A stretch of DNA of 64,000 nt, taken from positions 3,445,752 to 3,509,751 of the forward strand of contig OZ240251.1 of assembly GCA_965198285.1 (NCBI GenBank), written 5' to 3'. Of this stretch, positions 11,795-28,004 are shown piece by piece. Every line of letters begins with the position of its first letter. The stretch's first letter is position 1. The position numbers and the translations under genes were made by a program. The DNA is from Chloroflexota bacterium (lineage in GTDB: Bacteria > Chloroflexota > UBA11872). The notes beneath the pieces are model-generated. The model was not told the DNA's origin and searched no databases. It saw only the letters and a program-made list of their open reading frames with translations.

Positions 11795-12920
11795 TGGCGA
11801 TTTCGTATTGAGCGATGGCGTCTTCGTTCACGCCAACGCCCAGGCCGGGACGCGTGGGAACGGGCAGATAGCCGTCGGCGTCGATACGCAGCGGCTCGTC
11901 CACGATTCCGCCCAGTTGCTGGTAGTGCTCAACGGTGCGATACGGCTCGTCCAGGATGAACTCCATGTACGGGCAGTTGGGAATGCAAACGCTCAACTGC
12001 ATGTGCGCCGCGATACCCAATCCCGTCACACCGTGATGCGGCACGAACAGCCGTCCGGCGAACTCGGCCGCCGCGGCAATCTTGCCGAATTGCGACAGCG
12101 CCTCGCAGTTGGCGCAGGTATCGGGCTGCAGGATGTCGTAAGCGCCCACCCGGATCATCTCCATGAATTCGGGCATTCCCACGTTGCCCTCGCCGCCGGC
12201 GATCGCGATGTCGGTTTCGGCCGTTAGTCGCGCGATGGCTTCGAAGTCGTGCCGCGGAAGCGGCTCCTCCAGCCAGTACACCCCCAGCTGTTCCAGCTCG
12301 CGCGCCTCCGCCAGGGCCCGCCCGTAGTCCCAGGCCGGGCGGTGGTCGCCGGACGAGCCGCCGGCCAGGTTCGCGTCCACCATGATCACCATGCGGTCGC
12401 CCACCGCGTCGCGCACCGCCGCCACCAGAGCCACGTCCTCCGCCAGCGTCGGAAACGCCGTGCGCAGCTTGATCGCCGTGAAGCCCTGCTCCAGGTAGCG
12501 CAGCGCATCCTCGGCCCGCTGCTCCGGCGTGGCCGCCACGATGGTGCTGGCATAGGCGCGCACCCGTGTCTCGCGGTAGCCCCACAGGCGGTGTAACGGC
12601 TGGCCGGCCGCCTTTCCGATGATGTCGCAGAGCGCCATGTCCACCAGGAACGACCCGGCCCGCCGCAGTACCTCGGCGTGTCGCCCCAGCGCATGCGGGT
12701 CCTGGCCGATCAGGCCCGGAGCCACCACATCGCGGATCGTAGCGCCGCTTCGCTGGTCACCAATACCCCAGCCGGTCAGCCCCTCGTCCGTCTCCACCTT
12801 CACGATCAACGCCGCGCGCGAATACTCCTTCTGGCCCGGTCGTCCCCAGGCATGGAAATACGGATGCGGATGCGGGACATCCACCAGGCGGACCGTGATA
12901 TCAGTGATCTTCATGGCCAT
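11784..12920 (-). CDS. enolase-superfamily enzyme (mandelate racemase / muconate lactonizing enzyme family)
   Basis: 378 aa. It has the TIM-barrel metal ligand pattern (…MVDAN…, LEEPL, …ILQPD…) and the N-terminal capping domain typical of the mandelate racemase / muconate lactonizing enzyme family. Confidence 0.7.
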   Translation of the reverse strand: MAMKITDITVRLVDVPHPHPYFHAWGRPGQKEYSRAALIVKVETDEGLTGWGIGDQRSGATIRDVVAPGLIGQDPHALGRHAEVLRRAGSFLVDMALCDIIGKAAGQPLHRLWGYRETRVRAYASTIVAATPEQRAEDALRYLEQGFTAIKLRTAFPTLAEDVALVAAVRDAVGDRMVIMVDANLAGGSSGDHRPAWDYGRALAEARELEQLGVYWLEEPLPRHDFEAIARLTAETDIAIAGGEGNVGMPEFMEMIRVGAYDILQPDTCANCEALSQFGKIAAAAEFAGRLFVPHHGVTGLGIAAHMQLSVCIPNCPYMEFILDEPYRTVEHYQQLGGIVDEPLRIDADGYLPVPTRPGLGVGVNEDAIAQYEIAITD

Positions 12921-12972: not shown

Positions 12973-13740
12973 CTATTGCCGTAAGTGTTTCAGCGCCTCG
13001 AACTCCGCCATGCCGCCCATCGAGATATACCCCTTTTCGCTGCCCGCGCTGATGAACGTGCAGCCGGCCGCGACCCACTTCTCGACCTGCTCGACGTTGC
13101 CGGCGGCAATGCCCGGCGCCTTGCCGTGCTTCTGGCAGGCTTCGATCATGCGCATGACGGCTTCGTCGTGTTCGGCCGAGTCGCGGGCGAAGCCAATCGA
13201 GTTCGCCAGGTCGGCGGGACCCAGCCAGCAGCCGTCGATGCCGTCCACGGCCATGATGTCGTCGGCGTTCTCGATGGCTTCCTTCGATTCCAGCTGGATC
13301 GCCACAAAGGCTTGGTCGTTGAAACTGTCGATGTAGTCTGGACCGTAGACGCTGGCGCCGCCCGCGCCGTTGGAACGCCCACCGGCCGGCGGGAACCGTG
13401 AGGCAAAGGCCGCCGCCTCGGCCTGCTCAACCGTGTCCACCATCGGCACGATGATGCCCAGCGCGCCTTCGTCCAGCAGCCGCCCGATCTCGTCGTATCG
13501 GTTGACCAGGGCGCGCGCAATGGGAATCGAGCCGCCCGCGCGAACCGCCATGAACGCCAGCATGGACGAGTAGCGGTCCCAAGTGCCGTGCTGGTTATCG
13601 ATCAGCACCCAGTCGAACCCCATGCTCGCCAGCATCTCGGCCGGAAACGGGACGCCCAGGCCGCAGCCGACCCCAAGGGCAACCTTGCCCTGGTCCATTC
13701 GTTGCTTTGCCGTATTCGTAATCACGAGTTCCTGCTCCAT
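12973..13740 (-). CDS. HpcH/HpaI-family aldolase
   Basis: ORF 12973..13797. The block GKVALGVGCGLGVPFPAEMLASMGFDWVLIDNQHG matches the 2-keto-3-deoxy-acid aldolase (HpcH/HpaI) N-terminus. The start is probably the internal MEQELV. Confidence 0.6.
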   Translation of the reverse strand: MEQELVITNTAKQRMDQGKVALGVGCGLGVPFPAEMLASMGFDWVLIDNQHGTWDRYSSMLAFMAVRAGGSIPIARALVNRYDEIGRLLDEGALGIIVPMVDTVEQAEAAAFASRFPPAGGRSNGAGGASVYGPDYIDSFNDQAFVAIQLESKEAIENADDIMAVDGIDGCWLGPADLANSIGFARDSAEHDEAVMRMIEACQKHGKAPGIAAGNVEQVEKWVAAGCTFISAGSEKGYISMGGMAEFEALKHLRQ

Positions 13741-13853
13741 TCGCCGCCAAGGCTCAGTGCCGGATATGACGCTAGGCGGCAGCCGCGGCTTCGTCAATTG
13801 CCACGGCCCACATATCCGCGGACGACCGCCACGGCCACCTGTCTATCGGGAAT

Positions 13854-14519
13854 TCAGCCCCGCTTGACGCCGATCCCGACTCCGTCGCCCACCTGCACGA
13901 TCGTCGAATCAAGCTGAGGGTGATCCAGGAACGCCCGATTGAACTCCCGGATGATCGGCGTCCACTGACGCGGACGGTTCGGGTCGTCGGTCTCCATGGC
14001 CGCCTGGCCGCCCCACAGGAGATTGTCGACACAAACGACCCCGCCTGGACGCAGCCGCTCGATAACCGCCTCCAGGTACGCGGGGTAGTCGTCCTTATTC
14101 GCGTCGATGTACGCAAAGTCGAACGGTCCGGGAACGTCTGCCAGCAAGTCCAGCGCCGGGCCGCAGCGCAACTCAACTCGCTCGGCCACCCGTTCGTGCA
14201 TCAGGTGCTCGCGGGCGCGCTGAAGGATCTCGCCATCGATGTCCAGGCAGATCAAGCGGCCGTCGCGCGGCAGCGCGCCGGCGATCCAGGTCGCCGAATA
14301 CCCGAGATTGGTACCGATCTCCAGGGCCGTGCGGGCGCCGCAGGCGCGCACCAGCGTCGCAATCAGCCGCGCCGACTCGCGTTCCGTAATCGGTTCGCGG
14401 TCCTTTTCGGCCTCTCGTTCGATTCGAGCCTGCGCCCCGCTGATCGCGGGATGCACGTCGCGCAAATATGCCCAGTCACGGGCTGGTCGGTCAGGATCCT
14501 GGCGTCGGCGTGCAGACAT
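13854..14519 (-). CDS. class I SAM-dependent O-methyltransferase (family 3, caffeoyl-CoA OMT-like)
   Basis: ORF 13854..14696, with the real start likely MSARRRQD at 14519. It carries LEIGTNLGYSATWIA (motif I) and DFAYIDANKDDY…GGVVCVDNLLWGG. It abuts the downstream aldehyde dehydrogenase stop. Confidence 0.65.
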   Translation of the reverse strand: MSARRRQDPDRPARDWAYLRDVHPAISGAQARIEREAEKDREPITERESARLIATLVRACGARTALEIGTNLGYSATWIAGALPRDGRLICLDIDGEILQRAREHLMHERVAERVELRCGPALDLLADVPGPFDFAYIDANKDDYPAYLEAVIERLRPGGVVCVDNLLWGGQAAMETDDPNRPRQWTPIIREFNRAFLDHPQLDSTIVQVGDGVGIGVKRG

Positions 14520-14526
14520 TTCTGGC

Positions 14527-16017
14527 TCAGTCCCAGGGGTCGCGGCCGTCGGACGACCTCGGCCAGCGCGAGACGACGACTTTCGGATCGGTAAAGAACC
14601 GCACGGCGTCGCCGGCCTGTCCGTGCAGATCCCCAAAGAACGACGCCTTGCGCCCCGCAAACGGGAAAAACGCCATCGGGGCGGCGACCCCGACATTCAC
14701 GCCCACGTTCCCAATGTTGACGCCCGAAACGAACTCTCTCGCGGCGGGTCCGCTGCTCGTGTAGATCGAGGCGGCGTTTCCAAACGGGCTGGCCTCAATC
14801 ATGTTCATCGCCTCCCGCAGCGTTCCGACCCGCTGCAGGCTGACCACTGGACCAAACACCTCTTCCTGCGAGATCCGCATCTCCGGCGTCACCTCGTCAA
14901 CCACCGTCGGGCCGACCCAGTAGCCATTGGGCAAACCCTCGGCGGTTGCGCCGCGGCCGTCAGCCACCATCCGCGCGCCTGCTGAAGCTGCATCGTCGAG
15001 CGTAGCCAGAATTCGATCGCGAGAGTCCTGCGAAATGACCGGACCCATTCCGACGTCCGGGTCCAGCCCGTCGCCCAGGCGCAAGGCCTGCGCGGCGGCC
15101 GTCAGCCGGTCGCTGAATTCTGAGTACACGTCGTTCGCCGCCACCACCACGGATCCCGCGAGGCAGCGCTGGCCGGCGCAGCCAAACGTGGAGCCCATCA
15201 GGTTCGGAATCGCAGCGTCCAGGTTGGCATCCGGCAGCACCACCAGGTGGTTCTTGGCCCCACCCTGCGCCTGCACCCGCTTGCCATGCTGCGCGGCCAG
15301 TTCGTAGATGCGCCGCGCAACCCGCGTCGTTCCGACAAATGAGACCCCTTGCACTCGCGGATCGGCGATTAGCGCCTCGGCCGTCTCCGCCCCACCGTGC
15401 ACCAGGTTGATGACGCCGGCCGGGAAACCGGCCTCGGCAATCAGGTCCATCATCCGCGCCTGGCTCAGCGGGGTCTGCGGCGACGGCTTGATGACGTAGG
15501 TGTTCCCGGTGGCTAGCGCGTAGGGCGCGAACCAGAACGGAACCATCGACGGGAAGTTGAAGGGCCCGATCTGGACGAACACGCCCATCGGTTCACGGAT
15601 CGACGTCTCATCGATGCCCGCGGCGATGTCGGCCGAGAAGTCGCCCATTTGCAGCGTCGGAATCCCGGCCGCGACCTCGATGTTCTCCAGGGTCCGGATC
15701 AGTTCGCCGCGCGCCTCTTCCAGCGTCTTGCCGTTCTCAATGGTGATGATGCGCGACAGGTCCTCGAACTGCTCCTCGACGAGGTGATGCAGCCGGAACA
15801 GCAATCGCCCGCGCTCTACCGCCGGCGTGGCCCGCCAACTGTCGAACGCATCATGGGCGGCCTGTACCGCGTCGGCCACGTCCTCGTCCGAAGCCATCGG
15901 CGCCTCGGCGACCACGCCACCCGACGCCGGGTTCGTGACTTCCGCGGCGTCGGTACCGCGCGCCGCCGTCCATTCCCCCGCGATCCAGTTCTGGAGCGTC
16001 TCCACTTCCGCGGCCAT
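14527..16017 (-). CDS. CoA-acylating methylmalonate-semialdehyde dehydrogenase-like aldehyde dehydrogenase
   Basis: ORF 14527..16425, but the ALDH homology begins at MAAEVETLQNWIAGEW (start 16017). The NAD site FVGTTRVARRIYE and the catalytic Cys region FGCAGQRCLAG are present, and the 496-aa length fits MmsA. The upstream 136 codons of the ORF are antisense filler. Confidence 0.75.
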   Translation of the reverse strand: MAAEVETLQNWIAGEWTAARGTDAAEVTNPASGGVVAEAPMASDEDVADAVQAAHDAFDSWRATPAVERGRLLFRLHHLVEEQFEDLSRIITIENGKTLEEARGELIRTLENIEVAAGIPTLQMGDFSADIAAGIDETSIREPMGVFVQIGPFNFPSMVPFWFAPYALATGNTYVIKPSPQTPLSQARMMDLIAEAGFPAGVINLVHGGAETAEALIADPRVQGVSFVGTTRVARRIYELAAQHGKRVQAQGGAKNHLVVLPDANLDAAIPNLMGSTFGCAGQRCLAGSVVVAANDVYSEFSDRLTAAAQALRLGDGLDPDVGMGPVISQDSRDRILATLDDAASAGARMVADGRGATAEGLPNGYWVGPTVVDEVTPEMRISQEEVFGPVVSLQRVGTLREAMNMIEASPFGNAASIYTSSGPAAREFVSGVNIGNVGVNVGVAAPMAFFPFAGRKASFFGDLHGQAGDAVRFFTDPKVVVSRWPRSSDGRDPWD

Positions 16018-16108: not shown

Positions 16109-17254
16109 ATGGTCGCACTCGCGCTTTCCACCCGCGATCCGGCAACGGCGATTGGCCAGCCGGTCGACGTTTTGGACACGCCGGCATTGGTCCTGGACCT
16201 CAGAGTCGTAGAGGCCAACATCGCCCGCACGGTCGAGATCGCCCAGGCCGCCGGCGCCCGGCTGCGGCCGCACATCAAGACCCACCGAATGCTCGCGGTG
16301 GCCCAACGCCAGATCGAGGCTGGCGCACAGGGCATCTGTTGCGCCAAGACCGGTGAGGCCGAGGTCTTCGCCGACGGCGGTGTCGATGACATCTTCATCG
16401 CCAACCAGGTCGTCGGCGCGGCCAAGATGCGGCGGCTACGAGCGCTCGCCGAGCGCGTCCGGCTCGCCGTGGGCGTCGATCACCCTGAGCAGATCGACTT
16501 GCTCAGCCAGGCATTTCGCGGGGCTGATCCCCTCGACATCAGCATCGAGATCGATGTAGGCCAGCGCCGTACCGGGGTGGTGGAAGACCATGAGGCCGTC
16601 GACCTGGCCCAGCGGATCCTGGATTCGCCGGGGCTCGCCTTGCGGGGCGTCTACACCCACGAAGGCCACGATTACGCGGCGCGGGATGATTCGGACCTGG
16701 CCGTGATCGCGGACCAGGCTCAACGCCAGATGCTGGATGCGGCGCAGGCCATCCGAGACGCCACAGGGGCAGCCTGCGAGGTGAGCATGGGATCGACGCC
16801 GTCGCTGTTCGCACGCAAGTTCCATGCGGGCATCGATGAACTGCGGCCGGGTACCGCCGTCTTCAACGACGGCTCGCACGCCAACTTCCTGGGCCACACC
16901 GACTGGTGTGCGGCCACCGTGCTGGCCACCGTGGTCAACCGGCCCGCGCCCGACCGGGTGGTGGTGGACGCCGGCGCCAAGGCTCTGACCTCCGATCGTC
17001 GTGGGCCCAGCATTCTGGAAAACAGCGGCTTCGGGATGGTCGTGGGCCGCCCCGAGGCCACCATCGTGAGTCTGTCCGACGAGCACGGCGTGCTTTCGGT
17101 GCCGGACGCCGATGCCTATGCCATCGGCGAGGTAATTCAGATCATCCCCAACCACATCTGCCCCTGCGTGAATCTGTACGACCATGCCTTCGTTGCGCGT
17201 GACGGAATCGTGCGGGAAGTGTGGGAAGTCTCGGCACGCGGGCAGAGTCAGTAG
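16109..17254 (+). CDS. alanine-racemase-fold PLP enzyme (DSD1 / D-serine or D-threo-3-hydroxyaspartate dehydratase-like)
   Basis: 381 aa. The PLP lysine context LRPHIKTHRM and the C-terminal beta-domain are present. It is divergent from the aldehyde dehydrogenase. Confidence 0.6.
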   Translation: MVALALSTRDPATAIGQPVDVLDTPALVLDLRVVEANIARTVEIAQAAGARLRPHIKTHRMLAVAQRQIEAGAQGICCAKTGEAEVFADGGVDDIFIANQVVGAAKMRRLRALAERVRLAVGVDHPEQIDLLSQAFRGADPLDISIEIDVGQRRTGVVEDHEAVDLAQRILDSPGLALRGVYTHEGHDYAARDDSDLAVIADQAQRQMLDAAQAIRDATGAACEVSMGSTPSLFARKFHAGIDELRPGTAVFNDGSHANFLGHTDWCAATVLATVVNRPAPDRVVVDAGAKALTSDRRGPSILENSGFGMVVGRPEATIVSLSDEHGVLSVPDADAYAIGEVIQIIPNHICPCVNLYDHAFVARDGIVREVWEVSARGQSQ

Positions 17255-17288
17255 CCAACGCCACTCGCCCGAAGGGAACTCGAGAGTC

Positions 17289-18056
17289 ATGGGAGCTCTT
17301 GACGGTCAAGCCGCCTTGGTCACCGGCGGCGGCAGCGGGATCGGCCGGGCGGCCGCCTTGGCGCTGGCGGGCGATGGCGCCGCGGTAGCCCTGGTCGGGC
17401 GGCGGCTCGCGCTCCTGGAAGAATCCGCCGGGATGATCAAGACGGCCAGAGGCCGCGTCCTGGTTCTGCCGGCCGACGTCGCCGATGCCGACGCGGTCCG
17501 TGAGGCCGTAGCCCAGACCGAAGCCGATTTCGGCCGTCTCGACATCCTGGTCAACAACGCCGGCGCTAACACCGCGTCGCGCAGCGTGGGCACAACCAGC
17601 GCCGACGACATCGAAACGCTGATGCGGATAAACGTGACCGGGCCCCTCACCCTGTCCCAGGCCGCGTTGCCGGGAATGCTGGAACGCGGCGGTGGGGTGA
17701 TCATCACGGTGGCGTCGTACTCGGTCGTAAGCCCCGGGCCGCCTGGCGGAACGGCCTACAGCGCCTCCAAGGCGGCCGTGGTGAGCCTGATGAAATGCGT
17801 GAACGCCGAGTACCGCAACCGCGGTATCCGGGCTTGCATCATCTACCCCGGCGAGGTGAACACCGAGATGCTGGATGCCCGCCCGCTCGTACCCGACGCC
17901 ACCGCCCGCGCAACCATGAGCCACGCCGACGACCTGGCCCAGATCATCCTGCTCTGCGCCCGCATGCCGGCGCGAACGCTGGTTGAAGAGATCTACGTCC
18001 GCCCGACCCACCTGCGCAACATGCAAGCCGACATCGCAGCCGCGATGGAGTTTTAG
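17289..18056 (+). CDS. short-chain dehydrogenase/reductase (SDR), paralog 1
   Basis: ORF 17184..18056 with start MGALDGQAALVTGGGSGIGRAAA (TGxxxGIG), NNAG, and YSASKAAV (YxxxK). It is about 60% identical to 26491..27258. Confidence 0.75.
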   Translation: MGALDGQAALVTGGGSGIGRAAALALAGDGAAVALVGRRLALLEESAGMIKTARGRVLVLPADVADADAVREAVAQTEADFGRLDILVNNAGANTASRSVGTTSADDIETLMRINVTGPLTLSQAALPGMLERGGGVIITVASYSVVSPGPPGGTAYSASKAAVVSLMKCVNAEYRNRGIRACIIYPGEVNTEMLDARPLVPDATARATMSHADDLAQIILLCARMPARTLVEEIYVRPTHLRNMQADIAAAMEF

Positions 18057-18217
18057 CCGACGTCCAAACCTCTCAGCCGCAGCTGGCGCGAAGCTCCGGT
18101 CGTGGGTGAGCTTGCGTCGCGGGCGGCGCGCCGCGGCAGCGTAACGGGCGGTTGGGGGGATTGGATGGGGCTGAGGGCGTGTGCCGGGCGGCGGGATTTG
18201 GGTGGGGGTGAAGGGGG

Positions 18218-18286
18218 AGCTATCTCTCGCCAGCCGGCCCCCAGAGGGGGCCGGCTGGCGAGAGATAGCTTGGGCCGGATTTTTTT
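18218..18286 (+). terminator. 25-bp perfect inverted repeat followed by T7 run (possible intrinsic terminator for the SDR gene, or a structural repeat)
   Basis: AGCTATCTCTCGCCAGCCGGCCCCC-AGA-GGGGGCCGGCTGGCGAGAGATAGCT then TGGGCCGGATTTTTTT. The stem is unusually long, and the T-run is 9 nt from the stem, so this is not canonical. Confidence 0.35.
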
Positions 18287-18369
18287 GGCGGGTTGGCGAC
18301 GAAGGTTGGGGCTGTGAGGGGGCGGCAGGGCGGCGCTGGAAGGGCTGGGTGCGCGGACGTGGCGAGGGG

Positions 18370-18432
18370 GTGGGGTGGGGGCGTCGCGAGCGGAAGAGGC
18401 CGGTTTCAAACCGGCCCCTACGAAAGATGGGG
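18370..18432. repeat. flank repeat block A (left copy); right copy at 26049..26113
   Basis: GTGGGGTGGGGGCGTCGCGAGCGGAAGAGGCCGGTTTCAAACCGGCCCCTACGAAAGATGGGG compared with GTGGGGGGTGTTGGGCTGCGACCGGAAGAGGCCGGTTTGAAACCGGCCCGTACGAAAGAGGGGG. Both contain a GGCCGGTTT-N-AAACCGGCC hairpin. Confidence 0.6.
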
Positions 18433-18624
18433 AACAAGCGGGGGCCAGGCGTCAGGAAGGTGAGTAGGCGGATTAGGGGGGCGAGCATGGAGGGTCCGGG
18501 GGAGGGACTTGGGAAAGGGCGTCTCTAGTGTACACTGCATGGATACGAAGAGCAAGGGTGATAAGGGTAGTGAGTCATTTTGATGTCTCCATGCGGCCTG
18601 GTTGGGGGACAGACCTCGACCGGA

Positions 18625-19050
18625 GGACCCCTCACCGAATTCCGCCGGGGACGGCGGAGTCTGCCTCTCCCCTCGGAGAGGGTGAAGAGCCGGGCAGCGA
18701 CTGAGGAGCGTGGGGTGCGCTGGAGTTGGTTGCCCGGGGGACCCCTCACCGATTTCGGCCGAAGACGCCCGAATCTGCCTCTCCCCTTGGAGAGGGTGAA
18801 GAGCCGGGCAGCGACTGAGGAGCGTGGGGTGCGCTGGAGTTGGTTGCCCGGGGGGACCCCTCACCGAATTCCGCCGGGGACGGCGGAGTCTGCCTCTCCC
18901 CTCGGAGAGGGTGAAGATTGGGAGCCGCCACGTAGGACCGTGGTGGGTGCTCGGACGAGCCCTCACCGATTTCCGCCGAAGACGGCGGAATCCTTCGGCT
19001 AGCTCAGGACGGGTTCTGCCTCTCCCCCAGGCGAGGGGAGGATTGGCGGG
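18625..19050. repeat. ~114-bp tandem repeat, 3.8 copies, each unit carrying two hairpins (REP/MITE-like family)
   Basis: The unit is GGACCCCTCACCGAATTCCGCCGGGGACGGCGGAGTCTGCCTCTCCCCTCGGAGAGGGTGAAGAGCCGGGCAGCGACTGAGGAGCGTGGGGTGCGCTGGAGTTGGTTGCCCGGG. The hairpins are TTCCGCCG-NNNN-CGGCGGAA and CCTCTCC-CCTC-GGAGAGG. Related copies lie at 58.23 kb and 61.87 kb. Confidence 0.7.
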
Positions 19051-19127
19051 ATGTGGTTCGACTCGGGCCCATTCGACAGGCTCAGGGCAGGTTCTTCGAC
19101 GGACTCTGGCCCGGCTGACCATGAACG
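19048..19127. repeat. flank repeat block B (left copy); right copy at 26199..26255
   Basis: GGGATGTGGTTCGACTCGGGCC ... GGACTCTGGCCCGGCT(G/C)ACCATGAACGG is shared. The left copy has a 30-bp insertion between the two halves. Confidence 0.55.
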
Positions 19128-19329
19128 GTGGATGCGAGTACGTGGGCTCGGGTTGGTGGGGAGGTCGGGGTGACACTGGTGCGCTGGGATTGTTGGGTGC
19201 TGCTGGGTCCCGGCTGGGGACGCCGGGATGACGGGGGAAGTGCGCTCGGGATGCGGGCGTGGACGGGATGTGAGGTTGCGCTGGGTTTGATCATGGTGCT
19301 GGGTCCCGGCTGAAGACGCCGGGATGACG

Positions 19330-19455
19330 GGATGTGTTCAGTCGGTCGGGCCAATGTGTTCAGTTTTGGGGCGACTGTGTTCAGTTTTTGGCCCGATGTG
19401 TTCACTCTCCGGCCGAATGTGTTCACTTTGGCGAGGCAGGTGTTCAGTTTTCGGT
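19330..19455. repeat. iteron-like array 1: 6 x 21-22 bp direct repeats (consensus GGCCRAATGTGTTCAGTTTTNGG)
   Basis: The units start near 19331, 19354, 19376, 19396, 19417 and 19439. They are contiguous with no spacers, and the array is preceded by GACGCCGGGATGACGGG. Confidence 0.7.
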
Positions 19456-19497
19456 GGCGGGCGTTGGTTGGGGATCGGGGACGGCGGGATGACGGGG

Positions 19498-19615
19498 ATG
19501 TGTCCACTCTGTCAGGCCAATGTGTCCAGTTTTTGGCCCGATGTGTCAACTTTTCGGGCGAATGTGTCCAGTTTTTGCCGAAATGTGTCCAGTTTCCGGC
19601 CGAATGTGTGCGGTG
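19498..19615. repeat. iteron-like array 2: 6 x 21-22 bp direct repeats (variant core ATGTGTCCAGTTTT)
   Basis: The units start near 19499, 19519, 19541, 19562, 19584 and 19604. The array is preceded by GACGGCGGGATGACGGGG, so the two arrays form a higher-order duplication of about 170 bp. Confidence 0.7.
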
Positions 19616-20151
19616 AGGAAGGGAAGAGGGGAGAGCGGAGAGTAGCGAGAGGGGACAAATAGGGGACTGCCTGTGCGGGCTGGGTGCTTCGGGTGTGGTT
19701 CGACAGGCTCACCAGGGACGCAGGGTGCGCTGGGATCGATCATGGCGGTGGGTTCCCCTCCTTCGGCTAGCTCAGGACAGGCTTCGACAAGCTCAGGGAA
19801 GGCTCTCCAGGGACGCCGGGATGACGAGCGTGGTGGCAAGTGGTTGGTGGGTGGTGGGGAGTGGCTTGTGCCGAGGTCGGTTGTTGGGCTGCTGGAGTTT
19901 TGGGGCGAACCGGGGAACGGGGATGCCGGCAATGACATCACTGCCAGCAACGCGATCAGTGCGTGCGGTGCTGGCAGTGCAGGCAACGCTGGCAGGGATT
20001 CCGGAGTCGGAGAGGCAGAGGCGGACAGGGACATGTCTTAGGCGAATGTCCGAAGCAGCATGTGGTTCAATGGCTGGGGCGTACTGTCGGCATTCCCAGG
20101 TCACAGGGTCCGCGCAGCCTGGGCCATCGTGCAGGAGTCGTGTGGGACAAT

Positions 20152-20166
20152 CGTGTGCTAAGCACA
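20152..20166. promoter_or_regulatory. 15-bp palindrome GTGTGCT-A-AGCACAC 23 nt upstream of the 20189 start (candidate operator)
   Basis: Perfect 7-bp arms, with a direct repeat TCGTGTG just upstream. Confidence 0.3.
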
Positions 20167-20188
20167 CCGCGCCTAATCTCTAGGGATA

Positions 20189-21799
20189 TTGCCTGAGACT
20201 ATGGTCATTAACGATCTAAACGCACTCCTGCAAGCTAAAACTAAGATTGAAAACCTCCTCGAGAATGGTGATACGACTGAGGCTTTTGATTTTGCAGACA
20301 ATCTTTGCGCAGGATCGGGCCAAGAGTCCCTTGTGAGAAACCTGCGTGCATGCACATACGCTGACGTAGGCGAACAGAACAATCAGATCTCTCTAATCGA
20401 AGAGGCAATTCGCATTTGGCGTTCGGCCGGGGAAGAAATCACAACTCGCGAGTCGTACAACTTGGCAAGCTCTATGTTGAGCATTTGGAGTCTCTATGAA
20501 GGGCAACACGGATTTGCCGATACTTGGCTGGAACAACGCGACTATCTGCGCGATTCTAGGAAGATATTCTCAGAAATCGCTAACGACGAGGGAGCTGAAA
20601 CAGAATTCCGGTTAAAGGCGCTAACTGACGCTGGAAACTCTTACGACAATGTCGGACGGCACACGGACGCCATCGATTGCTTCGATCGTGCACTCGCGCT
20701 CGACTCTTCATTTGCAATGGCGACGGGCAATCGCGGCCTGGCCCTCCTCTACGCATCGCCTTACATGAGGGATTTTGAGCGTGAGATTGAGCTACTCGCG
20801 GCAGCAGACCTTGATCACGCGATAAGTAATTCGGAAAGCGTGCTAAAGCATGGCGGAGAGTCGGCGCTAGAGAGCTTTCGCCGGCAGCGCTCTGCAATAC
20901 CTGACTTGCCGAGTGCATCTGATGAATCTGAACCGATGCCACCTAGGTTTACCGATCCTCATTTGACCTGGTGCCTGCGCGAAGGGCTCTTTCTGCACGT
21001 AGCGCCGTGGCTGGTGGGTAGCAATGCGTCGGTTCTCGACCCAATTTTCTTCAGGCGCATAATAACGAGTCTCGGCGCAAGGGACATAACCCTCACCAAT
21101 GAGATCATTGACGCATTTAATACGATTAAGCAGGACTTTGTGTCGGCTCGCTATTTGGTGTGGGCATCGAGTGAGCCTAGCAGTCCAATCTGGACGCATG
21201 CTCAGTCGATCAGCTCGCACGTATCATTTTTGGATACTCTCGATTACGGCAGGTGGGGCGTTCGAACTGGTACTGCAATTCAGGCATTCAAGGCGGCTGT
21301 AGATGTTCTGGATAAGAGTGCGTCCTTTGCACACTTGTACTTCGGCACCAAACAGGCAGCTCGTCGTGTATCGTTTCGTAGCCTACCTTACGAGGACAGC
21401 GCACGTCGAAACGTTGCGGCAGCGTTTGAGAGTGCTTTGAACGGAAAGTCGCCTAACCGAGGGTTGTCGGCCTTAATGGATCTGAGCTACGAACTTGATG
21501 ACGAGGGATCATCGCCTCTAGCACTTAATGTAAACATGCGACACGCTGCCACGCATCGGTTCTTGACTGTTCATTCTGAGATGGCTCCGGAATCGTCGGA
21601 CTGGAGTGAGCGAATCAACTGGCGAGATCTCATCGACGAGTCTTTGTGTCAATTACGACTTGCGAGGTCTGCAATATTCTATTTAGCGCAGATGATTGAC
21701 ATGCAAGAGGATGTCAAGATTGCTACGGAAGCTGGAATGTCGGTGACCATGGCGCTGCCATATGCAAGGCTAGACACTGACTTGCTGGAGGCCGAATAG
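20189..21799 (+). CDS. TPR-repeat protein with C-terminal HEPN-like R-x4-H motif (candidate LA2681-type HEPN RNase / Abi-like protein)
   Basis: 536 aa. The N-terminal two-thirds holds several TPR-like helical pairs (for example AIDCFDRALALDSSFAMATGNRGLAL). At the C-terminus ...ALNVNMRHAATHRFLTVH... gives R-x4-H, the HEPN catalytic signature, in a predicted all-helical region. GC is about 45-50% against ~68% for the flanks, and there is a clean ATG with no overlap. Confidence 0.45.
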   Translation: MPETMVINDLNALLQAKTKIENLLENGDTTEAFDFADNLCAGSGQESLVRNLRACTYADVGEQNNQISLIEEAIRIWRSAGEEITTRESYNLASSMLSIWSLYEGQHGFADTWLEQRDYLRDSRKIFSEIANDEGAETEFRLKALTDAGNSYDNVGRHTDAIDCFDRALALDSSFAMATGNRGLALLYASPYMRDFEREIELLAAADLDHAISNSESVLKHGGESALESFRRQRSAIPDLPSASDESEPMPPRFTDPHLTWCLREGLFLHVAPWLVGSNASVLDPIFFRRIITSLGARDITLTNEIIDAFNTIKQDFVSARYLVWASSEPSSPIWTHAQSISSHVSFLDTLDYGRWGVRTGTAIQAFKAAVDVLDKSASFAHLYFGTKQAARRVSFRSLPYEDSARRNVAAAFESALNGKSPNRGLSALMDLSYELDDEGSSPLALNVNMRHAATHRFLTVHSEMAPESSDWSERINWRDLIDESLCQLRLARSAIFYLAQMIDMQEDVKIATEAGMSVTMALPYARLDTDLLEAE

Positions 21800-21840
21800 G
21801 CACCTGACTGTCGTCGTAGCACGGGCTGCTAGGACGCGAA

Positions 21841-21981
21841 GGTCTCGGGTTTGGCATTAGTGGCGGCTTGTGGTGGTTCCGAAGAGGATGATTCGCTTGG
21901 GTTTGAAGCGGTCGTGGATGAGTTGGGTGATGGCTTGGTTGGTTTCGCGGTTGAGAGGCTCTTCGACAACGCGAATTGGGG
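21841..21981 (-). pseudogene. possible remnant of a minimal nucleotidyltransferase (MNT/pol-beta NTase) N-terminus
   Basis: Minus-strand frame gives ...PIRVVEEPLNRETNQAITQLIHDRFKPKRIILFGTTTSRH(stop). The h-x-x-L-x...K-R-I-I-L-F-G segment resembles the helix plus hG[GS] start of MNT antitoxins, but it stops before the catalytic D.D. It has no start codon and overlaps the restriction-modification gene stop. Confidence 0.2.
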
Positions 21982-24900
21982 CTAGACGGCCACCTGGGCT
22001 TCGGTGTCGCCGGCGGTGAGGGCGTTCATGTAGGCGAGGATTAGGGCTTTGGTGCGGTAGTGGTTGAAGGCGGCTTGGTCCTGGCGTTGGATGATGGGGA
22101 AGGTGGAGAGGATGTAGGCCGCGTCTTCGCGGGTGAGGCCGTAGAGGTGGAAGTAGAGGGCGTCGAGGCGGGCTCGGAGGTGGCGACGTTCTTCGGGGTC
22201 CCAGGGGAAGGGTGGGCCGTGGTGGCCTAGGTCGCGGGCGAAGGGGGCCATGTCGTGGGCGGTGTAGGTGAGGCGGAGGACGTGGTGGTGGACGAGGTCG
22301 GCGGCGGTGCGGTCGCCGAAGCGGCGGTGATAGGTGGCTGGAGGAAGGACCGGGAGTTGCTCGACGGTGTACCAGGTCAAATGCTGACCCTGGACTTTCT
22401 GGCGGGCAACGAAGTCGAACGCGAACGAGTTCAGGGAGGCGAGCCAGAAGCAGGCATTTTCCTTATAAGTGGCGACGTCAGCGTCGGGCATCAGCAGCGG
22501 CAGTGTGTGACCGGCGCCTACGCGCGGAATGATTGAGGCGATGACTGCCCGGACATTCGTTGGCGAAGTTACGTCCTTGAACGCCACTGCCCAACTCAAT
22601 TCATCGGGCCACTTGATGTCTTGCTCACTAACCCAGAACTGAGGAGTCGGTAGCCAATATGGATCGCCGTGCTCTTCGGCTGTGGCCGGTCTTGGCTGGG
22701 CGGGTCGGTGGAGATTCTTCCGGTTGACAACCACGCTGGCGGCGCGGTGGTCAAACGCCTGTGTCATTTTCCCCTCATAGAGAGGGACGTAATGATCAGC
22801 GCCACGCTTCCAACGATTGGCTTGGACGGGGTAGAAGCCCTCTTCCTGCAGTTCGGACGTGGTTCGGAAAAGGTGAGATGAATTGGCCATGTCCAGCATG
22901 CGGACGTAGCGGACGGGCCAAGCGCGGCGTTCGTCGTCGCCTGAACGGTCCACCAGGACAGGATGGTCCTGGTAGATACGGCGAGTGATGTCGGCGTCGC
23001 GGCGGGTGCGGAAGACGGGGGCGGTGCCGGTGTTGGGGTTGACGCGGGCGAAGTCGTCGGGGCTGAGGGTAAAGGCTCGGTCAGGGTCGGTGATGGTGGT
23101 GTCAGGCAGGAAGAAGCCGCAGCGGGTCTCGGGGAACGTGCGCCCGGGTCCGCCGATGATGAGGGCGCAGAACTTGAAGCGGGAGTCGATGTCGGGGAAG
23201 AAAGGCGGCAATTCGGTTCCGAGGCGACGGTTTTCGAAGTCAAAGATTCCGGCGACGCGGCCGGTGGTGGAGACGGACTGGAAGAAGCGGGCGGCGGTGC
23301 GGTCGGCGTAGATGCCGGAGGGGGTGAGCAGGCCGACGAGGCCGTTGGGTTTGACGAGGCGCAGGGAGCGTTCGACAAAGAGGGAGTAGAGGTTGATGTC
23401 GCCACCGCCCAACAACGGGTAGTGGCCGGAGGCGCGGATGACCTGGCCGAGGCGGTCGGCGCGGGCCTTGGCCTTGTCGAAGGCCACGGCCAATGGAGCG
23501 CCATGTTCGCGCAGGCGCTTGATGCCTTCGTGGCGGGCGGCGGCAGTGGCGGCACGGGCGAGATCTGGGTCCCTGGTGGCAAACCACTCGACTTCCTGGA
23601 GCTTGATGCGGTCCCAAGGGGGATTGCCGATGACAGCGTCGAAGCCGCCCTCGGGGGTTTGGTTTTGCCAGTGACGCCAGACGCCGGGGAAGGCGGCTTC
23701 CCAGTGGAGGAAGGATTCCTGGTCGGCTACAGAGTGGGCCTCGGCCAGGCGCTCGCGAAAAGCGGTTGAACGATTGTGCGCTCGGTCGCCCGGCGGACGC
23801 GCCAACTGCTCGTAAGCGCGGCTGGCGTCGGCCCCCAGCGTCTCGGCTATTGGCGCTTCGAATACGGCACGCTGGCGGACCTTGAGGCCGGCGGTGAGCC
23901 AGCGGAGGCCGGTGAGGGTGTCGAGGAAGCTGCGGAGGTCGGCAGTGGCGGACTCGACGGCCTGGAAGAGCGACTGGGACTGGTGGACTTCCGACACGTC
24001 GGCATCGGAGAGCTGTTCGATCCGGCGCATGCCCTGGGCGGCGTTCTCGATGCCTTGCAGCGCGCTGGACACGAACATGGGCACGTCCAGCCGCTGCAAG
24101 TCCGCCGTGGCGTCGGCGCTGTGCAGCCCCAGCAACGAATCTCCGCAGCGTAAATGGTGATCCAAGAACGATAGGGGCGCGCCGACCGTGAAGCTATGGA
24201 GCCAGAGGGAGACCTTTGCAAGTTCGACGGTGAGCGAGTTCTTGTCCACCCCGTAGATGCAGCGCTTGAGCACCAAGCGGCGGATGATGGCCTGGTCGCT
24301 CAACTGGGTCTCGTAGACCTTCCAGCCGGACGCGTGAGCGCGATGCAGGATGTCAGAGCGAATGGCGGCGATACGGTCAAGCAAGGGCGAGTGGTAAGGG
24401 TCGTCTTCGGGCAGCCAGTCGGGGATGGCGGGGACGAACTCAATCAGGTCGGCGACATAGTCGGTCAGGAAATCAACGGCGGTGACTAGGAAATGGCCGC
24501 TGCCCATCGCCGGGTCCAGCACCTTGAGATCGAGCACGGCCTGGGCGGGGTCCAGGCGGGCTAGCTCGGCGCGGCGCTCGGCTTTGGGGCGGCGGTCGCC
24601 CTTCAATTCCTTGGCCCGGGCCTCGAAGGCGTCCAGGCGTTCCTCGATGAGCGGCTTGAGGGTCTGGTCGACTATGAGGTCCACGAGATCCTGCGGGGTG
24701 TAGAAGCTGCCGCTGTCCTTGCGGGCGTAGGGGTTGGGGCGGACCGTCACCGCCCCCTGAGCGTCCAGCACCGGTTCCTGTTCCAGCAGACGTTCGTAGA
24801 TGGATCCGAGTTGCTGGACGGACATGTCGCGGTAGTTGACGTAGCGGCGCTGGCCGTCGGTTTGGGTGTGGCTGAGGTCGTAGATGATGTCGGCGATGAC

Positions 24901-26004
24901 GTTGTCAGAGACGCGGACCCTGCCAAGAAGTTTGGAGGCGTCCTCGGCAAACAGGCCGCCGTTGTAGGGCGGCAGGCCGACGTCCGGATCTCCCTGATCA
25001 ATCTGCCGGAAGAGTTCCTTCAGGTGATTCCAGTAGCTGGCAGCTGTGTCCGAGAAGGTGTCGTTGCGGGCTTTGCGCTCGGCTACGTCGTCGCGTACAC
25101 GCTTGCGGAGGCCGTAGTCGTCGTAGGCGGCGTCGTTAACGGGCAGGAGGCCGCGGTCTTCGGCGTAGAGGACGAAGAGCAGGCGGTAGAGAAAGATGAG
25201 GGCGGCTTCGCGGATTGCGGGCATGGGCCGGTCGGTGGCATCGGCCAGGGCCTGGAGGAGGCGGGGAAAGACGCGCTGGAAGACGACGCCGGCGAGGCTC
25301 TGGGCGACGCGCTGTTCGTAACGACGGCCCTGGTCTAGAGCGGTCTCCAGGAAGGTGACGGCGGCGCCGGGGCGGCGCAGGAAGGCGGAGCGGCGAAAGA
25401 GAAGGTGGAAGGTGCGGAGGGCGTCCTGGTCGTCGGCTTGGAGGAGGGCCTGGAGGTCGGCTTCGTAGTAGGCGGTGGCGCGGGGGCGAGTTTTCTGGTC
25501 GTAGAGACGCCAGACGGCACCGTTGGTGAGGATCCCCCAGCGGAGGTCGCCGTCGGTGACGGTTTCGGCTTCGCGGAGGTAGCGAAGGATCTGGGCGTGG
25601 GGTGAGGAGGCCTGGAGTCCCTTGCCGGAGCCGCGGGTGTCGAGGGGACGACGGAAGCGTTTGAGCTCGGCGACGGCGAGGGCTTCGAGGAATGAGCTGG
25701 CGTTGGAACCGGTGGCGCGGGTCTTGGCCTGGGCGTCGGGGAAGAGGAGCAGGTCGGGGATATTTTCGCCGCCGCTGGTCGTCTGCTGGGAGAGGTCGTC
25801 GGTCCAGCCGAGGAGTTGGAGCAGGGGACGAATGAGGTCCTGCTCGGTCTGAGTCTCGTTGGGGTTGTGGGCGGTGGGGAAGTCCTGGAAGAGGCGGCGG
25901 GCTTCGTCACGGAAGGTGTTGTAGGCGCGGCGCTGGGTTTGGCGCTCGGGGGTTTGGCGGATGCCGTCGGTGAGGAAGTACTGGGTGAATAGGTGGCCGG
26001 GCAT
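21982..26004 (-). CDS. Type IIG (MmeI-like) restriction-modification enzyme: PD-ExK nuclease + gamma-class N6-adenine methyltransferase + target-recognition region
   Basis: 1340 aa. The N-terminus ENIPDLLLFPD...LAVAELKRF resembles the MmeI-family D...ExK nuclease core. Motif I is VLDPAMGSGHFLV (about aa 515) and motif IV is GNPPW (about aa 790), in gamma order. A C-terminal ~550 aa region ends with an Eco57I/MmeI-like tail (YVPLYEGKM.QAFDHR ... LYGL...YIL.TFPI). No separate methylase gene is nearby. Confidence 0.7.
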   Translation of the reverse strand: MPGHLFTQYFLTDGIRQTPERQTQRRAYNTFRDEARRLFQDFPTAHNPNETQTEQDLIRPLLQLLGWTDDLSQQTTSGGENIPDLLLFPDAQAKTRATGSNASSFLEALAVAELKRFRRPLDTRGSGKGLQASSPHAQILRYLREAETVTDGDLRWGILTNGAVWRLYDQKTRPRATAYYEADLQALLQADDQDALRTFHLLFRRSAFLRRPGAAVTFLETALDQGRRYEQRVAQSLAGVVFQRVFPRLLQALADATDRPMPAIREAALIFLYRLLFVLYAEDRGLLPVNDAAYDDYGLRKRVRDDVAERKARNDTFSDTAASYWNHLKELFRQIDQGDPDVGLPPYNGGLFAEDASKLLGRVRVSDNVIADIIYDLSHTQTDGQRRYVNYRDMSVQQLGSIYERLLEQEPVLDAQGAVTVRPNPYARKDSGSFYTPQDLVDLIVDQTLKPLIEERLDAFEARAKELKGDRRPKAERRAELARLDPAQAVLDLKVLDPAMGSGHFLVTAVDFLTDYVADLIEFVPAIPDWLPEDDPYHSPLLDRIAAIRSDILHRAHASGWKVYETQLSDQAIIRRLVLKRCIYGVDKNSLTVELAKVSLWLHSFTVGAPLSFLDHHLRCGDSLLGLHSADATADLQRLDVPMFVSSALQGIENAAQGMRRIEQLSDADVSEVHQSQSLFQAVESATADLRSFLDTLTGLRWLTAGLKVRQRAVFEAPIAETLGADASRAYEQLARPPGDRAHNRSTAFRERLAEAHSVADQESFLHWEAAFPGVWRHWQNQTPEGGFDAVIGNPPWDRIKLQEVEWFATRDPDLARAATAAARHEGIKRLREHGAPLAVAFDKAKARADRLGQVIRASGHYPLLGGGDINLYSLFVERSLRLVKPNGLVGLLTPSGIYADRTAARFFQSVSTTGRVAGIFDFENRRLGTELPPFFPDIDSRFKFCALIIGGPGRTFPETRCGFFLPDTTITDPDRAFTLSPDDFARVNPNTGTAPVFRTRRDADITRRIYQDHPVLVDRSGDDERRAWPVRYVRMLDMANSSHLFRTTSELQEEGFYPVQANRWKRGADHYVPLYEGKMTQAFDHRAASVVVNRKNLHRPAQPRPATAEEHGDPYWLPTPQFWVSEQDIKWPDELSWAVAFKDVTSPTNVRAVIASIIPRVGAGHTLPLLMPDADVATYKENACFWLASLNSFAFDFVARQKVQGQHLTWYTVEQLPVLPPATYHRRFGDRTAADLVHHHVLRLTYTAHDMAPFARDLGHHGPPFPWDPEERRHLRARLDALYFHLYGLTREDAAYILSTFPIIQRQDQAAFNHYRTKALILAYMNALTAGDTEAQVAV

Positions 26005-26490
26005 TAGAGAAGGACGTTTTCGGTACGGGGAAGCATCGCATGTTTGGGGGTGGGGGGTGTTGGGCTGCGACCGGAAGAGGCCGGTTTGAAACCGGCCCGT
26101 ACGAAAGAGGGGGCGGGGACGGCGGGGGCGTCACGACCGGAAGGTGGGGGGCGGGTTCTCCGAGGGACGCCGGGGCGGCTCACCACGAACGGGGGGCTGG
26201 GGATGTGGTTCGACTCGGGCCGCCGAGGGACTCTGGCCCGGCTCACCATGAACGGATAGAGAAGACGGGCGGGTCGGGGGCAACGGCCCTGCGAAGGGCA
26301 GGACGGGAGGGCGCGGGGTGGGGCAAAGCGTCTGGATTGACCGAAGCGCCGTGGGCCGTAGATGACATGATGGGTGTGGTCGAGTCACGCAGAGATACGG
26401 TGAGCGACGTCGGGACGGGGCGGACGGGTCGCCGTAACTCAATGTGACCCAATACTGAGAATCCAGCAGCCGCGAAGGGCAGGTGCGCCG

Positions 26491-27258
26491 ATGAAACAGC
26501 TGAATGGTCAAGTCGCGTTGGTGACCGGCGCCGGAACCGGTATCGGTCGCGCCAGCGCAATTGCGCTGGCCCGCGAAGGAGCGGCGGTGACGCTGGTTGG
26601 GCGGCGTCAGTCCTTGCTCGATGAGACTGCGGCCACGATTCGAGGTGCGGGCGGCACGGCGCTGGCTCTCCCGGCCGACATCACCGATCCCGAAGCCGCG
26701 CGGGCCGTGGTGGCGAAAACCGAGTCCGAGTTCGGGCGTCTGGACGTCCTGGTTAACAACGCCGGCGGCGGCAGCCGGTCACGCAGCGTGCGAACGATCG
26801 AAGCAGACGATTTCGAGGGCGTGCAGCGGCTGAACGTGACGGCCCCGATGGTGCTCACGCAGGCGGCGCTGCCGGGGATGCTGGACCGTGGGACCGGCAC
26901 CGTCATCACCATTTCGTCGTACGCCGCCGTCACTGCCGGCCCGATGGCCGGCGTGGCCTATGGCGCCGCGAAGGCGGCCGTGGCGAGCGTGATGAAGAGC
27001 GTCAACAACGAACTCCGCAGCCACGGCCTGCGGGCCTGCACGATTTTCCCGGGCGAAGTGGACACCCCGATCCTGGAACGCCGCAAGCTGGTCCCGGACG
27101 CTGCGGCGCGCGCCACGATGATGCAGTCCGAAGACCTGGCCGAAATCGTCCGCCTCTGCGCCTGCCTGCCCGGCCGCACGCTGATTGAAGAGGTCTACGT
27201 GCGACCGACCCACCTGCGCGACCTGAGCGCCGACACCGAGGCGGCGCTAGAGACCTAG
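26491..27258 (+). CDS. short-chain dehydrogenase/reductase (SDR), paralog 2
   Basis: 255 aa. It has TGAGTGIGRA, NNAG, and YGAAKAAV, and is collinear with SDR paralog 1 over its full length. Confidence 0.75.
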   Translation: MKQLNGQVALVTGAGTGIGRASAIALAREGAAVTLVGRRQSLLDETAATIRGAGGTALALPADITDPEAARAVVAKTESEFGRLDVLVNNAGGGSRSRSVRTIEADDFEGVQRLNVTAPMVLTQAALPGMLDRGTGTVITISSYAAVTAGPMAGVAYGAAKAAVASVMKSVNNELRSHGLRACTIFPGEVDTPILERRKLVPDAAARATMMQSEDLAEIVRLCACLPGRTLIEEVYVRPTHLRDLSADTEAALET

Positions 27259-28004
27259 CGCCCGACCTTCCCCAGGAAGTCCTTCGCGCCCTCGGCTATC
27301 CAGGCGTTCAGTCCGGTCGTCACGAAGCCGACGCCCATGTCAACGTAGCGTTCAACGTTGGCGGAGGTGACCAGCGTTCCGGCGTGGCGGCCTGAGGCCA
27401 CGATGGTTGCCAGCGCCTGGTCGATCACTGCCTGCACCTCGGGGTGCGTGGAGTCCATGTGACCGAGGCTTTGCCCCAGGTCGCCGGGCGCGACGTAGAA
27501 GATGTCCACGCCTTCGACTTGAAGGATCTCGTCCAGGTTGTTCACGGCCAGGATGTCCTCGATCAGGATGATCGCCAGGCACTCGTCGTTGGCCCGCTCC
27601 AGGAAGTCCGAGACCCCGTAACCCTGGCGGGAGGTCATCATGCCCCGTTTACCGATCGGAAAGAATTTTGACGCGTCGGCTACCGCCTGGGCCTGGTCGC
27701 GTGTGTCCACGTGCGGCACGCAGACGCCTTGAGCGCCGAGGTCCAGCACGCGGTAGATGGGCCCGTAGCGATTCTCGTTGACGCGCACGATGGAGGTCAT
27801 GCCCCAGAGGTCGGCAGCGCGACTCATGTCGGGGATGTCCCGGTAGTCCAGCGGTCCGTGCTCGCCTTCCAGCCACACGGAGTCGAACCCCAGCGGCCCC
27901 AGCCACTCGATGAGGTCCGCCGTCATCCCGGTGCCCATCACACCCGTAGCCAGTTCACCGGCGGCCAGTTTGTGCTTCACTCGGTTCGGTCGCATTGAAG
28001 GCAT
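27255..28004 (-). CDS. HpcH/HpaI-family aldolase, paralog 2
   Basis: 249 aa. The block GELATGVMGTGMTADLIEWLGPLGFDSVWLEGEHG matches the HpcH/HpaI N-terminus. It is convergent with SDR paralog 2, with a 4-nt overlap. Confidence 0.6.
   Translation of the reverse strand: MPSMRPNRVKHKLAAGELATGVMGTGMTADLIEWLGPLGFDSVWLEGEHGPLDYRDIPDMSRAADLWGMTSIVRVNENRYGPIYRVLDLGAQGVCVPHVDTRDQAQAVADASKFFPIGKRGMMTSRQGYGVSDFLERANDECLAIILIEDILAVNNLDEILQVEGVDIFYVAPGDLGQSLGHMDSTHPEVQAVIDQALATIVASGRHAGTLVTSANVERYVDMGVGFVTTGLNAWIAEGAKDFLGKVGR

Follow-up and report, generated by a model that had tools for sequence, protein, structure and literature searches.

A TPR-HEPN protein of the LA2681 family and its convergent Type IIG neighbour in a Chloroflexota genome

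The genomic stretch described here (64 kb of a Chloroflexota bacterium, referred to below as the window) carries a low-GC gene for a protein predicted to join a tetratricopeptide repeat (TPR) superhelix to a C-terminal HEPN domain, and next to it, in convergent orientation, a gene for a Type IIG restriction-modification (R-M) enzyme. An earlier note on this DNA had pointed to TPR-like helix pairs and a C-terminal NMRHAATHRF in the product of the open reading frame (ORF) at 20189..21799 (+). This ORF was confirmed by translation, and reads open from a TTG at 20189 for 536 amino acids (aa). The start codon is probably the ATG at 20201, which would give a 532-aa protein, because a public collection holds an identical protein of 532 aa (P0001), homologues are 530-537 aa long, and the four codons from TTG 20189 to ATG 20201 show no protein-level conservation in L031, one of the related loci (denoted by L and a number) used for comparison. 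The HEPN gene then spans 20201..21799 (+), stop codon included, an assignment that draws on the Pfam family PF18733, on P0001 and on an excess of third-position substitutions. Relative to the L001 orthologue, changes at codon positions 1, 2 and 3 number 101, 67 and 222, which marks the gene as a real coding sequence evidently under purifying selection.

Pfam assigns residues 300-500 of the protein to HEPN_LA2681 (PF18733) with 105.5 bits, against a cutoff of 27 (E=3e-30), and the match covers profile positions 8-202 of 204; the only other Pfam match in the protein is a sub-threshold TPR at aa 140-171. The comparison of the C-terminal region with HEPN families, proposed in the earlier note, thus returned the very family that it had named, far above the cutoff. 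In the AlphaFold2 model, which was built from the family alignment (pLDDT 89, pTM 0.89), the predicted HEPN core occupies aa 293-510 (21077..21730, +) and consists of helices H1 (293-324) and H2 (354-381), an insert, helix H3 (439-452), a beta-hairpin (454-473) and helix H4 (474-510). The R-x4-H catalytic motif, R447-H-A-A-T-H452 (21539..21556, +), forms the C-terminal end of helix 3 and lies within the NMRHAATHRF encoded at nt 21533-21562 (R447 codon 21539-21541, H452 codon 21554-21556). Relatives with PF18733 numbered 73, and an alignment of 39 relatives has R447 in all 39 and H452 in 38. Both residues are also present in 90 of 92 aligned long family representatives, with the consensus R-[NH]-A-[AS]-T-H-R-F, and the reading of R-x4-H as a HEPN signature is upheld by this conservation.

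The predicted layout can be compared with the definition of HEPN domains in a 2013 in-silico survey by Anantharaman, Makarova, Burroughs, Koonin and Aravind (PMC3710099). There helix 3 ends in the motif, helix 2 carries an acidic residue and an insert separates the two helices. The model fits, since motif 447-452 ends helix 439-452, an insert separates H2 from H3, and helix 354-381 contains the acidic D371, which is conserved in at least 90% of sequences. A Foldseek search with the C-terminal part of the model gave no significant match. Because the fold searches were consistent but weak, the assignment rests mainly on the profile, the motif and the position of the motif; by these sequence measures the C-terminal region is a genuine HEPN domain of the LA2681-like type, with its catalytic dyad at the canonical position.

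The N-terminal part of the protein (aa 1-235; 20201..20905, +) is predicted to form a TPR-like alpha-superhelix. About five helix pairs occupy residues 6-231 of the AlphaFold2 model, followed by a disordered linker before the HEPN helices. Foldseek with the full-length model returned TPR proteins as its sole matches (probability 1.0), the family profile matches consensus TPR proteins, and solved TPR proteins resemble the N-terminal half; a sequence search of the PDB with the HEPN protein likewise gave TPR matches and nothing else. The helix pairs anticipated from the bare sequence, and the motif that follows them, are both borne out. In the alignment of 39 relatives the polar residues N146, D149, R153 and N177 of the TPR region are invariant, which suggests that this domain may bind a specific conserved ligand.

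Searching 1.84 billion proteins with a profile built on the C-terminal domain yielded 1,431 cluster representatives. Of the best 150, most are about 500-545 aa long and have the HEPN domain at about residues 250-530, and TPR plus HEPN is, to judge from these lengths and positions, the dominant architecture of the family. Some close relatives are named 'LA2681 family HEPN domain-containing protein' by NCBI. Table 1 of the 2013 survey (PMC3710099) gives LA2681 a 'Yes' for the Rx4-6H motif and lists a TPR fusion or operon, in agreement with the LA2681-like HEPN architecture with TPR that had been proposed for this gene. Searches of the literature for PF18733, HEPN_LA2681 and 'LA2681-like' found nothing, and LA2681 itself was met in this survey only. 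The window protein belongs, as an unexceptional member, to a family already known and defined computationally, and is not a new type of protein; the locus confirms that catalytic motif, fold topology and TPR fusion are family-wide features.

The convergent neighbour, recognised as a Type IIG enzyme in the earlier note, is a 1340-aa R-M enzyme of the Eco57I/MmeI type encoded at 21982..26004 (-), identified by Pfam, by PADLOC and by residues invariant in an alignment of five orthologues. Eco57I (70 bits) and N6_Mtase (29.5 bits) score above the Pfam cutoffs and MmeI_hel (helicase-spacer), MmeI_Mtase and MmeI_N below them, and the PADLOC model REase_MTase_IIG matches with 226.6 bits. Invariant in the five orthologues are D84, E113 and K115 of a PD..ExK nuclease motif, methyltransferase motif I DPAMGSGHF (aa 497-505) and motif IV NPPW (aa 794-797). 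The neighbour looks like an intact solitary Type IIG (IIG) enzyme. A search of PDB sequences with the protein (phmmer, E up to 0.001) matched no chain. The possibility that it is the DISARM methylase DrmMI was rejected: that model gives the best PADLOC score (316.6 bits) but spans the methyltransferase core only, and drmA, drmB, drmC, drmD and drmE were not found nearby. The genes flanking the pair are metabolic (short-chain dehydrogenases, aldolase, sulfatase).

The stop codons of the two genes are 182 nt apart. Within this spacer lies the decayed 5' part of a gene for an MNT nucleotidyltransferase antitoxin (about 51 codons; 21824..21976, -), recognised as a relic by tblastn and by a DNA match. 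With the MNT protein of L003 as query, 51 aa of it align at 47% identity (E=2e-15); its frame is broken by a stop, and L003 itself has an intact MNT and HEPN (PF05168) pair at the same place.

At six Chloroflexota loci (the window, L002, L003, L030, L031 and L032), each with different flanking genes, an LA2681 gene and an IIG orthologue (64-82% identity) are arranged tail-to-tail. Remnants of the enzyme are found at two further loci, both with an intact HEPN gene: in L011 the C-terminal third of the IIG gene remains, beside an SNF2 helicase and a DUF1156 methylase, and in L001 the IIG gene is a 114-nt relic, accompanied by an unrelated 778-aa Eco57I-type methylase. The two partners are separated by an MNT-HEPN toxin-antitoxin pair in L003 and by a 262-aa gene in L030. 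We also examined the contexts of HEPN homologues in annotated contigs and 24 genome loci. An IIG gene was not found at about 21 HEPN homologue loci (other Chloroflexota/Dehalococcoidia and all Actinomycetota), and across the 24 loci no neighbour of the HEPN gene is conserved besides the lineage-specific IIG gene. Scanning metagenome contigs with the IIG alignment gave 80 full-length orthologues (45-64% identity), and none of the 80 loci, 52 of which have at least 1.5 kb of downstream sequence, contains an LA2681 relative. The slot downstream of these orthologues holds instead AAA_21/AAA_15 ATPases, Mrr, MORC-like ATPases, FRG-TPR, HNH, HD and PIN proteins, integrases and a C5 methylase.

Within the window-type group, HEPN proteins share 67-77% identity; between this group and the HEPN proteins of L002, L003 and L011 the figure is 45-51%. 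The L002 IIG enzyme is 71-82% identical to the window-type enzymes, as close as those are to each other, and its HEPN partner only 45-49%, an apparent allele replacement of the L002 HEPN gene. In a neighbour-joining tree, unlinked HEPN genes nest among IIG-linked ones. Because the HEPN branches are deep, the L002 identities incongruent and the unlinked genes nested, the linkage is either old or repeatedly renewed, and both partners can do without it. Fragments duplicated from the IIG 3' end occur upstream of the LA2681 gene in L002 (8046-8100), L030 (3564-3978) and L032 (7358-7609), and in L003 such a fragment (11673-11847) lies directly downstream of the LA2681 gene, before the MNT-HEPN pair. 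These duplications, together with the MNT relic in the window spacer, identify the IIG 3' end as a recombination-active accessory slot. A survey of homologue neighbourhoods for Type IIG linkage, as the earlier note had proposed, thus gives a divided answer: the linkage recurs in one Chloroflexota lineage and is absent from most relatives of either gene. The pairing is a lineage-specific, non-obligate association in a defence-island slot.

HEPN relatives reside in variable, mobile, defence-rich regions. At the Pfam-annotated loci their neighbours include PIN/PhdYeFM, Schlafen/AlbA_2, DUF5677, MNT-HEPN, HigB, a RES toxin, a DUF4011-MTES_1575 helicase and insertion sequence elements, and further contexts comprise Mrr, an integrase/relaxase element, and plasmids with ABC-3C, DUF4917 and polymorphic toxins. 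Plasmid-borne members occur in Brucella, Alteromonas, Rhodococcus and Vibrio. No HEPN relative was found in the viral contigs searched, and phage records gave a single weak match. Copies of the HEPN gene are split or truncated in L012, L013, L023 and L028, and the L032 protein (P0005) has RNAATNRL, in which the catalytic histidine is gone; because of these disruptions and this loss, the turnover of the gene is typical of toxin or defence genes. The L031 HEPN gene (7870-9467) has a frameshift after about 44 codons that may be a long-read assembly error. As a separate observation, on a Brucella abortus S19 plasmid (L116, NZ_CP107074.1, 4819-7422) a DUF4917 gene ends 19 nt before a same-strand LA2681 HEPN gene, close to an ABC-three-component system and a relaxase. 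A DUF4917 protein was seen once among the Actinomycetota neighbourhoods, and DUF4917 may be a recurrent partner elsewhere in the family.

At 51.5% GC the HEPN gene lies 14.5 points below its flanks (66%), a smaller difference than the roughly 20 points of the earlier estimate; its GC content at third codon positions (GC3) is 0.54, as compared with 0.82 for the window IIG gene, and the edges of the GC drop coincide with the ORF boundaries. This low GC had been taken to imply separate acquisition, a conclusion now weakened. Wherever an IIG gene or a remnant of one is present (eight loci: window, L001, L002, L003, L011, L030, L031 and L032), the HEPN gene has 49-53% GC and a GC3 of 0.50-0.57, and the adjoining Eco57I-type gene has 64-68% GC and a GC3 of 0.79-0.87. 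The HEPN gene at unlinked Chloroflexota loci has 49-55% GC, and several Actinomycetota homologues have a GC content like that of their host. Since the gap persists in eight loci across 45-77% HEPN protein identity, it is no mark of a single recent acquisition in this genome. The low GC is a stable, old gap or one renewed by allele replacement, and is no proof of recent acquisition here; its persistence suggests either selection (for example for low toxin expression) or repeated replacement from a source of lower GC.

Upstream of the HEPN gene, a G-rich non-coding leader of 2.1 kb (18057..20200, with no strand assigned; GC skew about +0.3) separates it from a short-chain dehydrogenase (SDR) gene. 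The leader is partly conserved in L001 and L031, where it precedes the HEPN genes closest to that of the window. Its last ~270 nt, a promoter-proximal block, are the most conserved, and a block of about 60 nt just before the start codon is nearly invariant in these two loci. Substitutions in the leader fall 35/37/38 by codon position, with no bias. An ORF at 19695-20183 (+), which looks conserved with L001, was considered as a small partner gene and rejected, as it shows no codon-position bias and its indels are not multiples of three. A scan of 19600-22100 for sigma-70 promoters and terminators gave counts no higher than in shuffled sequence. Elsewhere in the leader, a perfect 25-nt inverted repeat followed by seven T's (18218-18270) probably serves the SDR gene at 17184-18056 as intrinsic terminator, and a similar structure is conserved at L031 6590-6650.

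Two arrays of five to six direct 21-nt repeats lie in the leader (19332-19454 and 19498-19609, +), each repeat consisting of a core, ATGTGTYCAGTTTT, and a variable G/C-rich 7-nt spacer, and a hairpin motif with GGGATGACGGG at its end stands before each array. Arrays like these precede the most closely related HEPN genes, again on the same strand, in L001 (9578-9697) and L031 (6937-7015 and 7219-7339); neither the rest of the 64-kb window nor some 115 other loci have any. Because their spacing equals two helical turns, the arrays are suggestive of iteron-like protein-binding sites.

Repeats of another kind are dispersed around the pair. A 114-nt (38-codon) tandem repeat lies in the leader at 18620-18962, and related units are found, with the frame kept, inside the IIG ORF of L002 (13582-14521), L032 (~11877-11931) and L003 (~14246-14556). 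There they enter the linker corresponding to window residues 735-748, extending the protein from 1340 to up to 1719 aa, and so behave like repetitive extragenic palindrome (REP)- or miniature inverted-repeat transposable element (MITE)-like elements tolerated in an inter-domain linker. Rfam on 17500-27000 gave sub-threshold whalefall-1 matches only, in the 114-nt repeats on the minus strand. In addition, direct repeats bracket the HEPN-IIG pair (18366-18432 with 26047-26113, and 19048-19128 with 26161-26255): one is a 67-nt unit with the palindrome GGCCGGTTTCAAACCGGCC, another has an exact 22-mer. We considered them as attachment (att) sites of a 7.7-kb island and rejected this, since related copies occur at 55499-55547, in intergenic regions of L001 and L002, and inside the IIG ORFs of L002 and L032; L031 also has related copies. 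They are probably dispersed REP/MITE-like intergenic repeats. Paralogous genes also flank the island, namely HpcH/HpaI aldolase genes (12973-13797 and 27255-28004) and SDR genes (17184-18056 and 26491-27258), and the two SDR genes share a 94-nt stretch at 73% identity.

We consider it probable that the window protein, a typical LA2681 TPR-HEPN protein, works as an autonomous single-gene conflict or defence effector, in a slot beside an R-M gene. Autonomy is argued because no neighbour is conserved in the 24 loci, the HEPN gene is intact in L011 and L001, and 0/80 IIG loci have a HEPN gene. By analogy with HEPN biology, the HEPN domain would be a metal-independent endoribonuclease, activated when a homodimer brings two R-x4-H motifs together. 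The TPR domain would serve as sensor or auto-inhibitor, and could bind a phage product or an infection-altered host protein and thereby license the cleavage of RNA, probably tRNA, rRNA or mRNA, with growth arrest or abortive infection as the outcome. The IIG enzyme and the toxin could then provide layered defence, at the DNA level and at the RNA level, by co-location and without an obligatory complex, and the HEPN gene would fill a variable accessory slot at the IIG 3' end, the pair having presumably stayed adjacent and moved together in one Chloroflexota lineage. Several points weigh against this interpretation. It is by analogy that RNase activity, dimerisation, a ligand of the TPR domain and triggering by phage are argued; no experimental characterisation of the LA2681 family was found in the literature searched; the HEPN protein is matched neither by PADLOC (at E up to 1) nor by NCBIfam; no antitoxin or immunity gene is evident; and the fact that the HEPN genes have stayed beside one IIG lineage while diverging deeply could point to genuine functional coupling.

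Such coupling could take the form of a module like PrrC-EcoprrI, in which the TPR domain would dock on the IIG enzyme and keep the RNase latent until a phage that inhibits or overwhelms restriction releases it as a second line of defence. The earlier note had likewise raised the idea of a two-gene defence module; the part of it that stands is the adjacency, which is intact in six loci and recorded by remnants in two. The tail-to-tail pairing recurs in six flanking contexts, IIG remnants persist beside the HEPN gene in L011 and L001, and the adjacency has outlasted HEPN divergence to 45% identity and the apparent allele replacement in L002. TPR domains mediate protein-protein contacts. Many HEPN clades are linked to R-M systems (PMC3710099), but LA2681 is not among the R-M-linked clades listed in that survey. 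Moreover, the genes are convergent and form separate transcription units and no operon; intervening genes are tolerated (the MNT-HEPN pair of L003, the 262-aa gene of L030); and the HEPN gene outlives its neighbour, staying intact after truncation of the IIG gene in L011 and its loss in L001. It is absent from all 80 IIG orthologue loci, 52 of them long enough on the downstream side for the absence to count, an IIG gene is missing from about 21 HEPN homologue loci, plasmid members in cultured bacteria have no R-M neighbour, and variability is a general property of the slot downstream of the IIG gene. We therefore regard a PrrC-like module as unlikely, though it is the main rival and the durability of the adjacency speaks for it. 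A narrower version, in which the TPR-HEPN protein has become a dedicated IIG partner in this Chloroflexota lineage, its TPR domain monitoring the enzyme or a bound phage anti-restriction factor and unleashing the RNase when restriction fails, seems to us doubtful. If true, it would be a PrrC-like guard made from different parts, and would explain why tail-to-tail pairing persists through HEPN allele turnover and at least six genomic sites.

The protein might alternatively have no role in defence, and act as an addiction or stabilisation toxin of a mobile island, or as a non-catalytic regulatory HEPN that binds RNA or protein. Members do lie at the edges of integrative and conjugative elements and on plasmids, both a PADLOC model and an experimental defence phenotype are lacking, and some HEPN families are non-catalytic binders according to the survey (PMC3710099). 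The same source notes that non-catalytic families typically lose the R and H, however, and these are near-invariant throughout LA2681; no cognate antitoxin gene is conserved in the 24 loci, and the neighbourhoods are dominated by defence genes, not plasmid maintenance genes. A non-defence role is accordingly improbable in our judgement. The upstream arrays (19332-19609) bring to mind a type III toxin-antitoxin system, where their transcript, a repetitive RNA, would hold the HEPN RNase inactive in the way that ToxI acts on ToxN. Same-strand arrays of five to six repeats are indeed found upstream of the HEPN gene, but in three genomes only (window, L001, L031); they are missing upstream of intact HEPN genes in L030, L002, L003, L011 and all other homologues. 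They also lie 300-870 nt from the start codon and not immediately upstream of it, their conserved 14-nt core and variable spacer at exactly two helical turns follow the pattern of DNA-binding iterons, there is no Rfam match, and the toxin is not of the ToxN/AbiQ fold. This last explanation strikes us as highly improbable.

Under the favoured reading, an autonomous defence effector, the locus has a practical use: the family occurs in defence and mobile contexts without a fixed partner, and its members, as single genes, are therefore well suited to phage-defence assays. That a HEPN nuclease guards an R-M enzyme is so far known mainly from PrrC, and the lineage with durable IIG pairing is a natural system for asking whether such guarding evolved independently. 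Coupling, if true, would extend the guard concept to Type IIG enzymes and TPR sensors; otherwise the pair is an ordinary case of co-location in a defence island.

Among known systems, PrrC-EcoprrI and RloC resemble the window in placing a HEPN RNase gene beside an R-M gene, an arrangement suggesting layered defence on DNA and then on RNA. They differ in that PrrC and RloC carry an N-terminal ABC-ATPase (ABC/Rad50-like), whereas the window protein has a predicted TPR superhelix and no Pfam match to an ATPase domain; prrC is co-directional within the hsd operon and its product is held latent by the R-M complex, whereas the window genes are convergent; and HEPN genes of the window type survive loss of the IIG gene, most relatives of either gene lacking the other. 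The MNT-HEPN system (MntA/HepT) has a HepT of about 130 aa that is neutralised through AMPylation by its cognate MNT, in contrast to the 532-aa window protein with its TPR region, beside which the MNT partner is a 51-codon relic. ApeA and the CBS-HEPN system DS-11 (PMC13092281) share the logic of an N-terminal sensor or regulatory domain and a C-terminal HEPN domain in one gene with no antitoxin; the putative sensor of the window protein is a TPR domain, and no sequence relationship extends outside the HEPN core. The neighbour is like Eco57I/MmeI-type Type IIG (IIL) enzymes in being a single chain with an N-terminal PD..ExK nuclease motif, a gamma-class N6-adenine methyltransferase and a C-terminal region. 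The closest likeness is with the LA2681-like HEPN family itself, from which the window protein is no different in profile score, R-x4-H motif, N-terminal TPR fusion or its typical length of 532 aa. What distinguishes the locus is its setting: durable tail-to-tail linkage to a Type IIG gene, persistently low GC and a repeat-bearing leader are unlisted for LA2681 in the 2013 survey, and all three are seen here.

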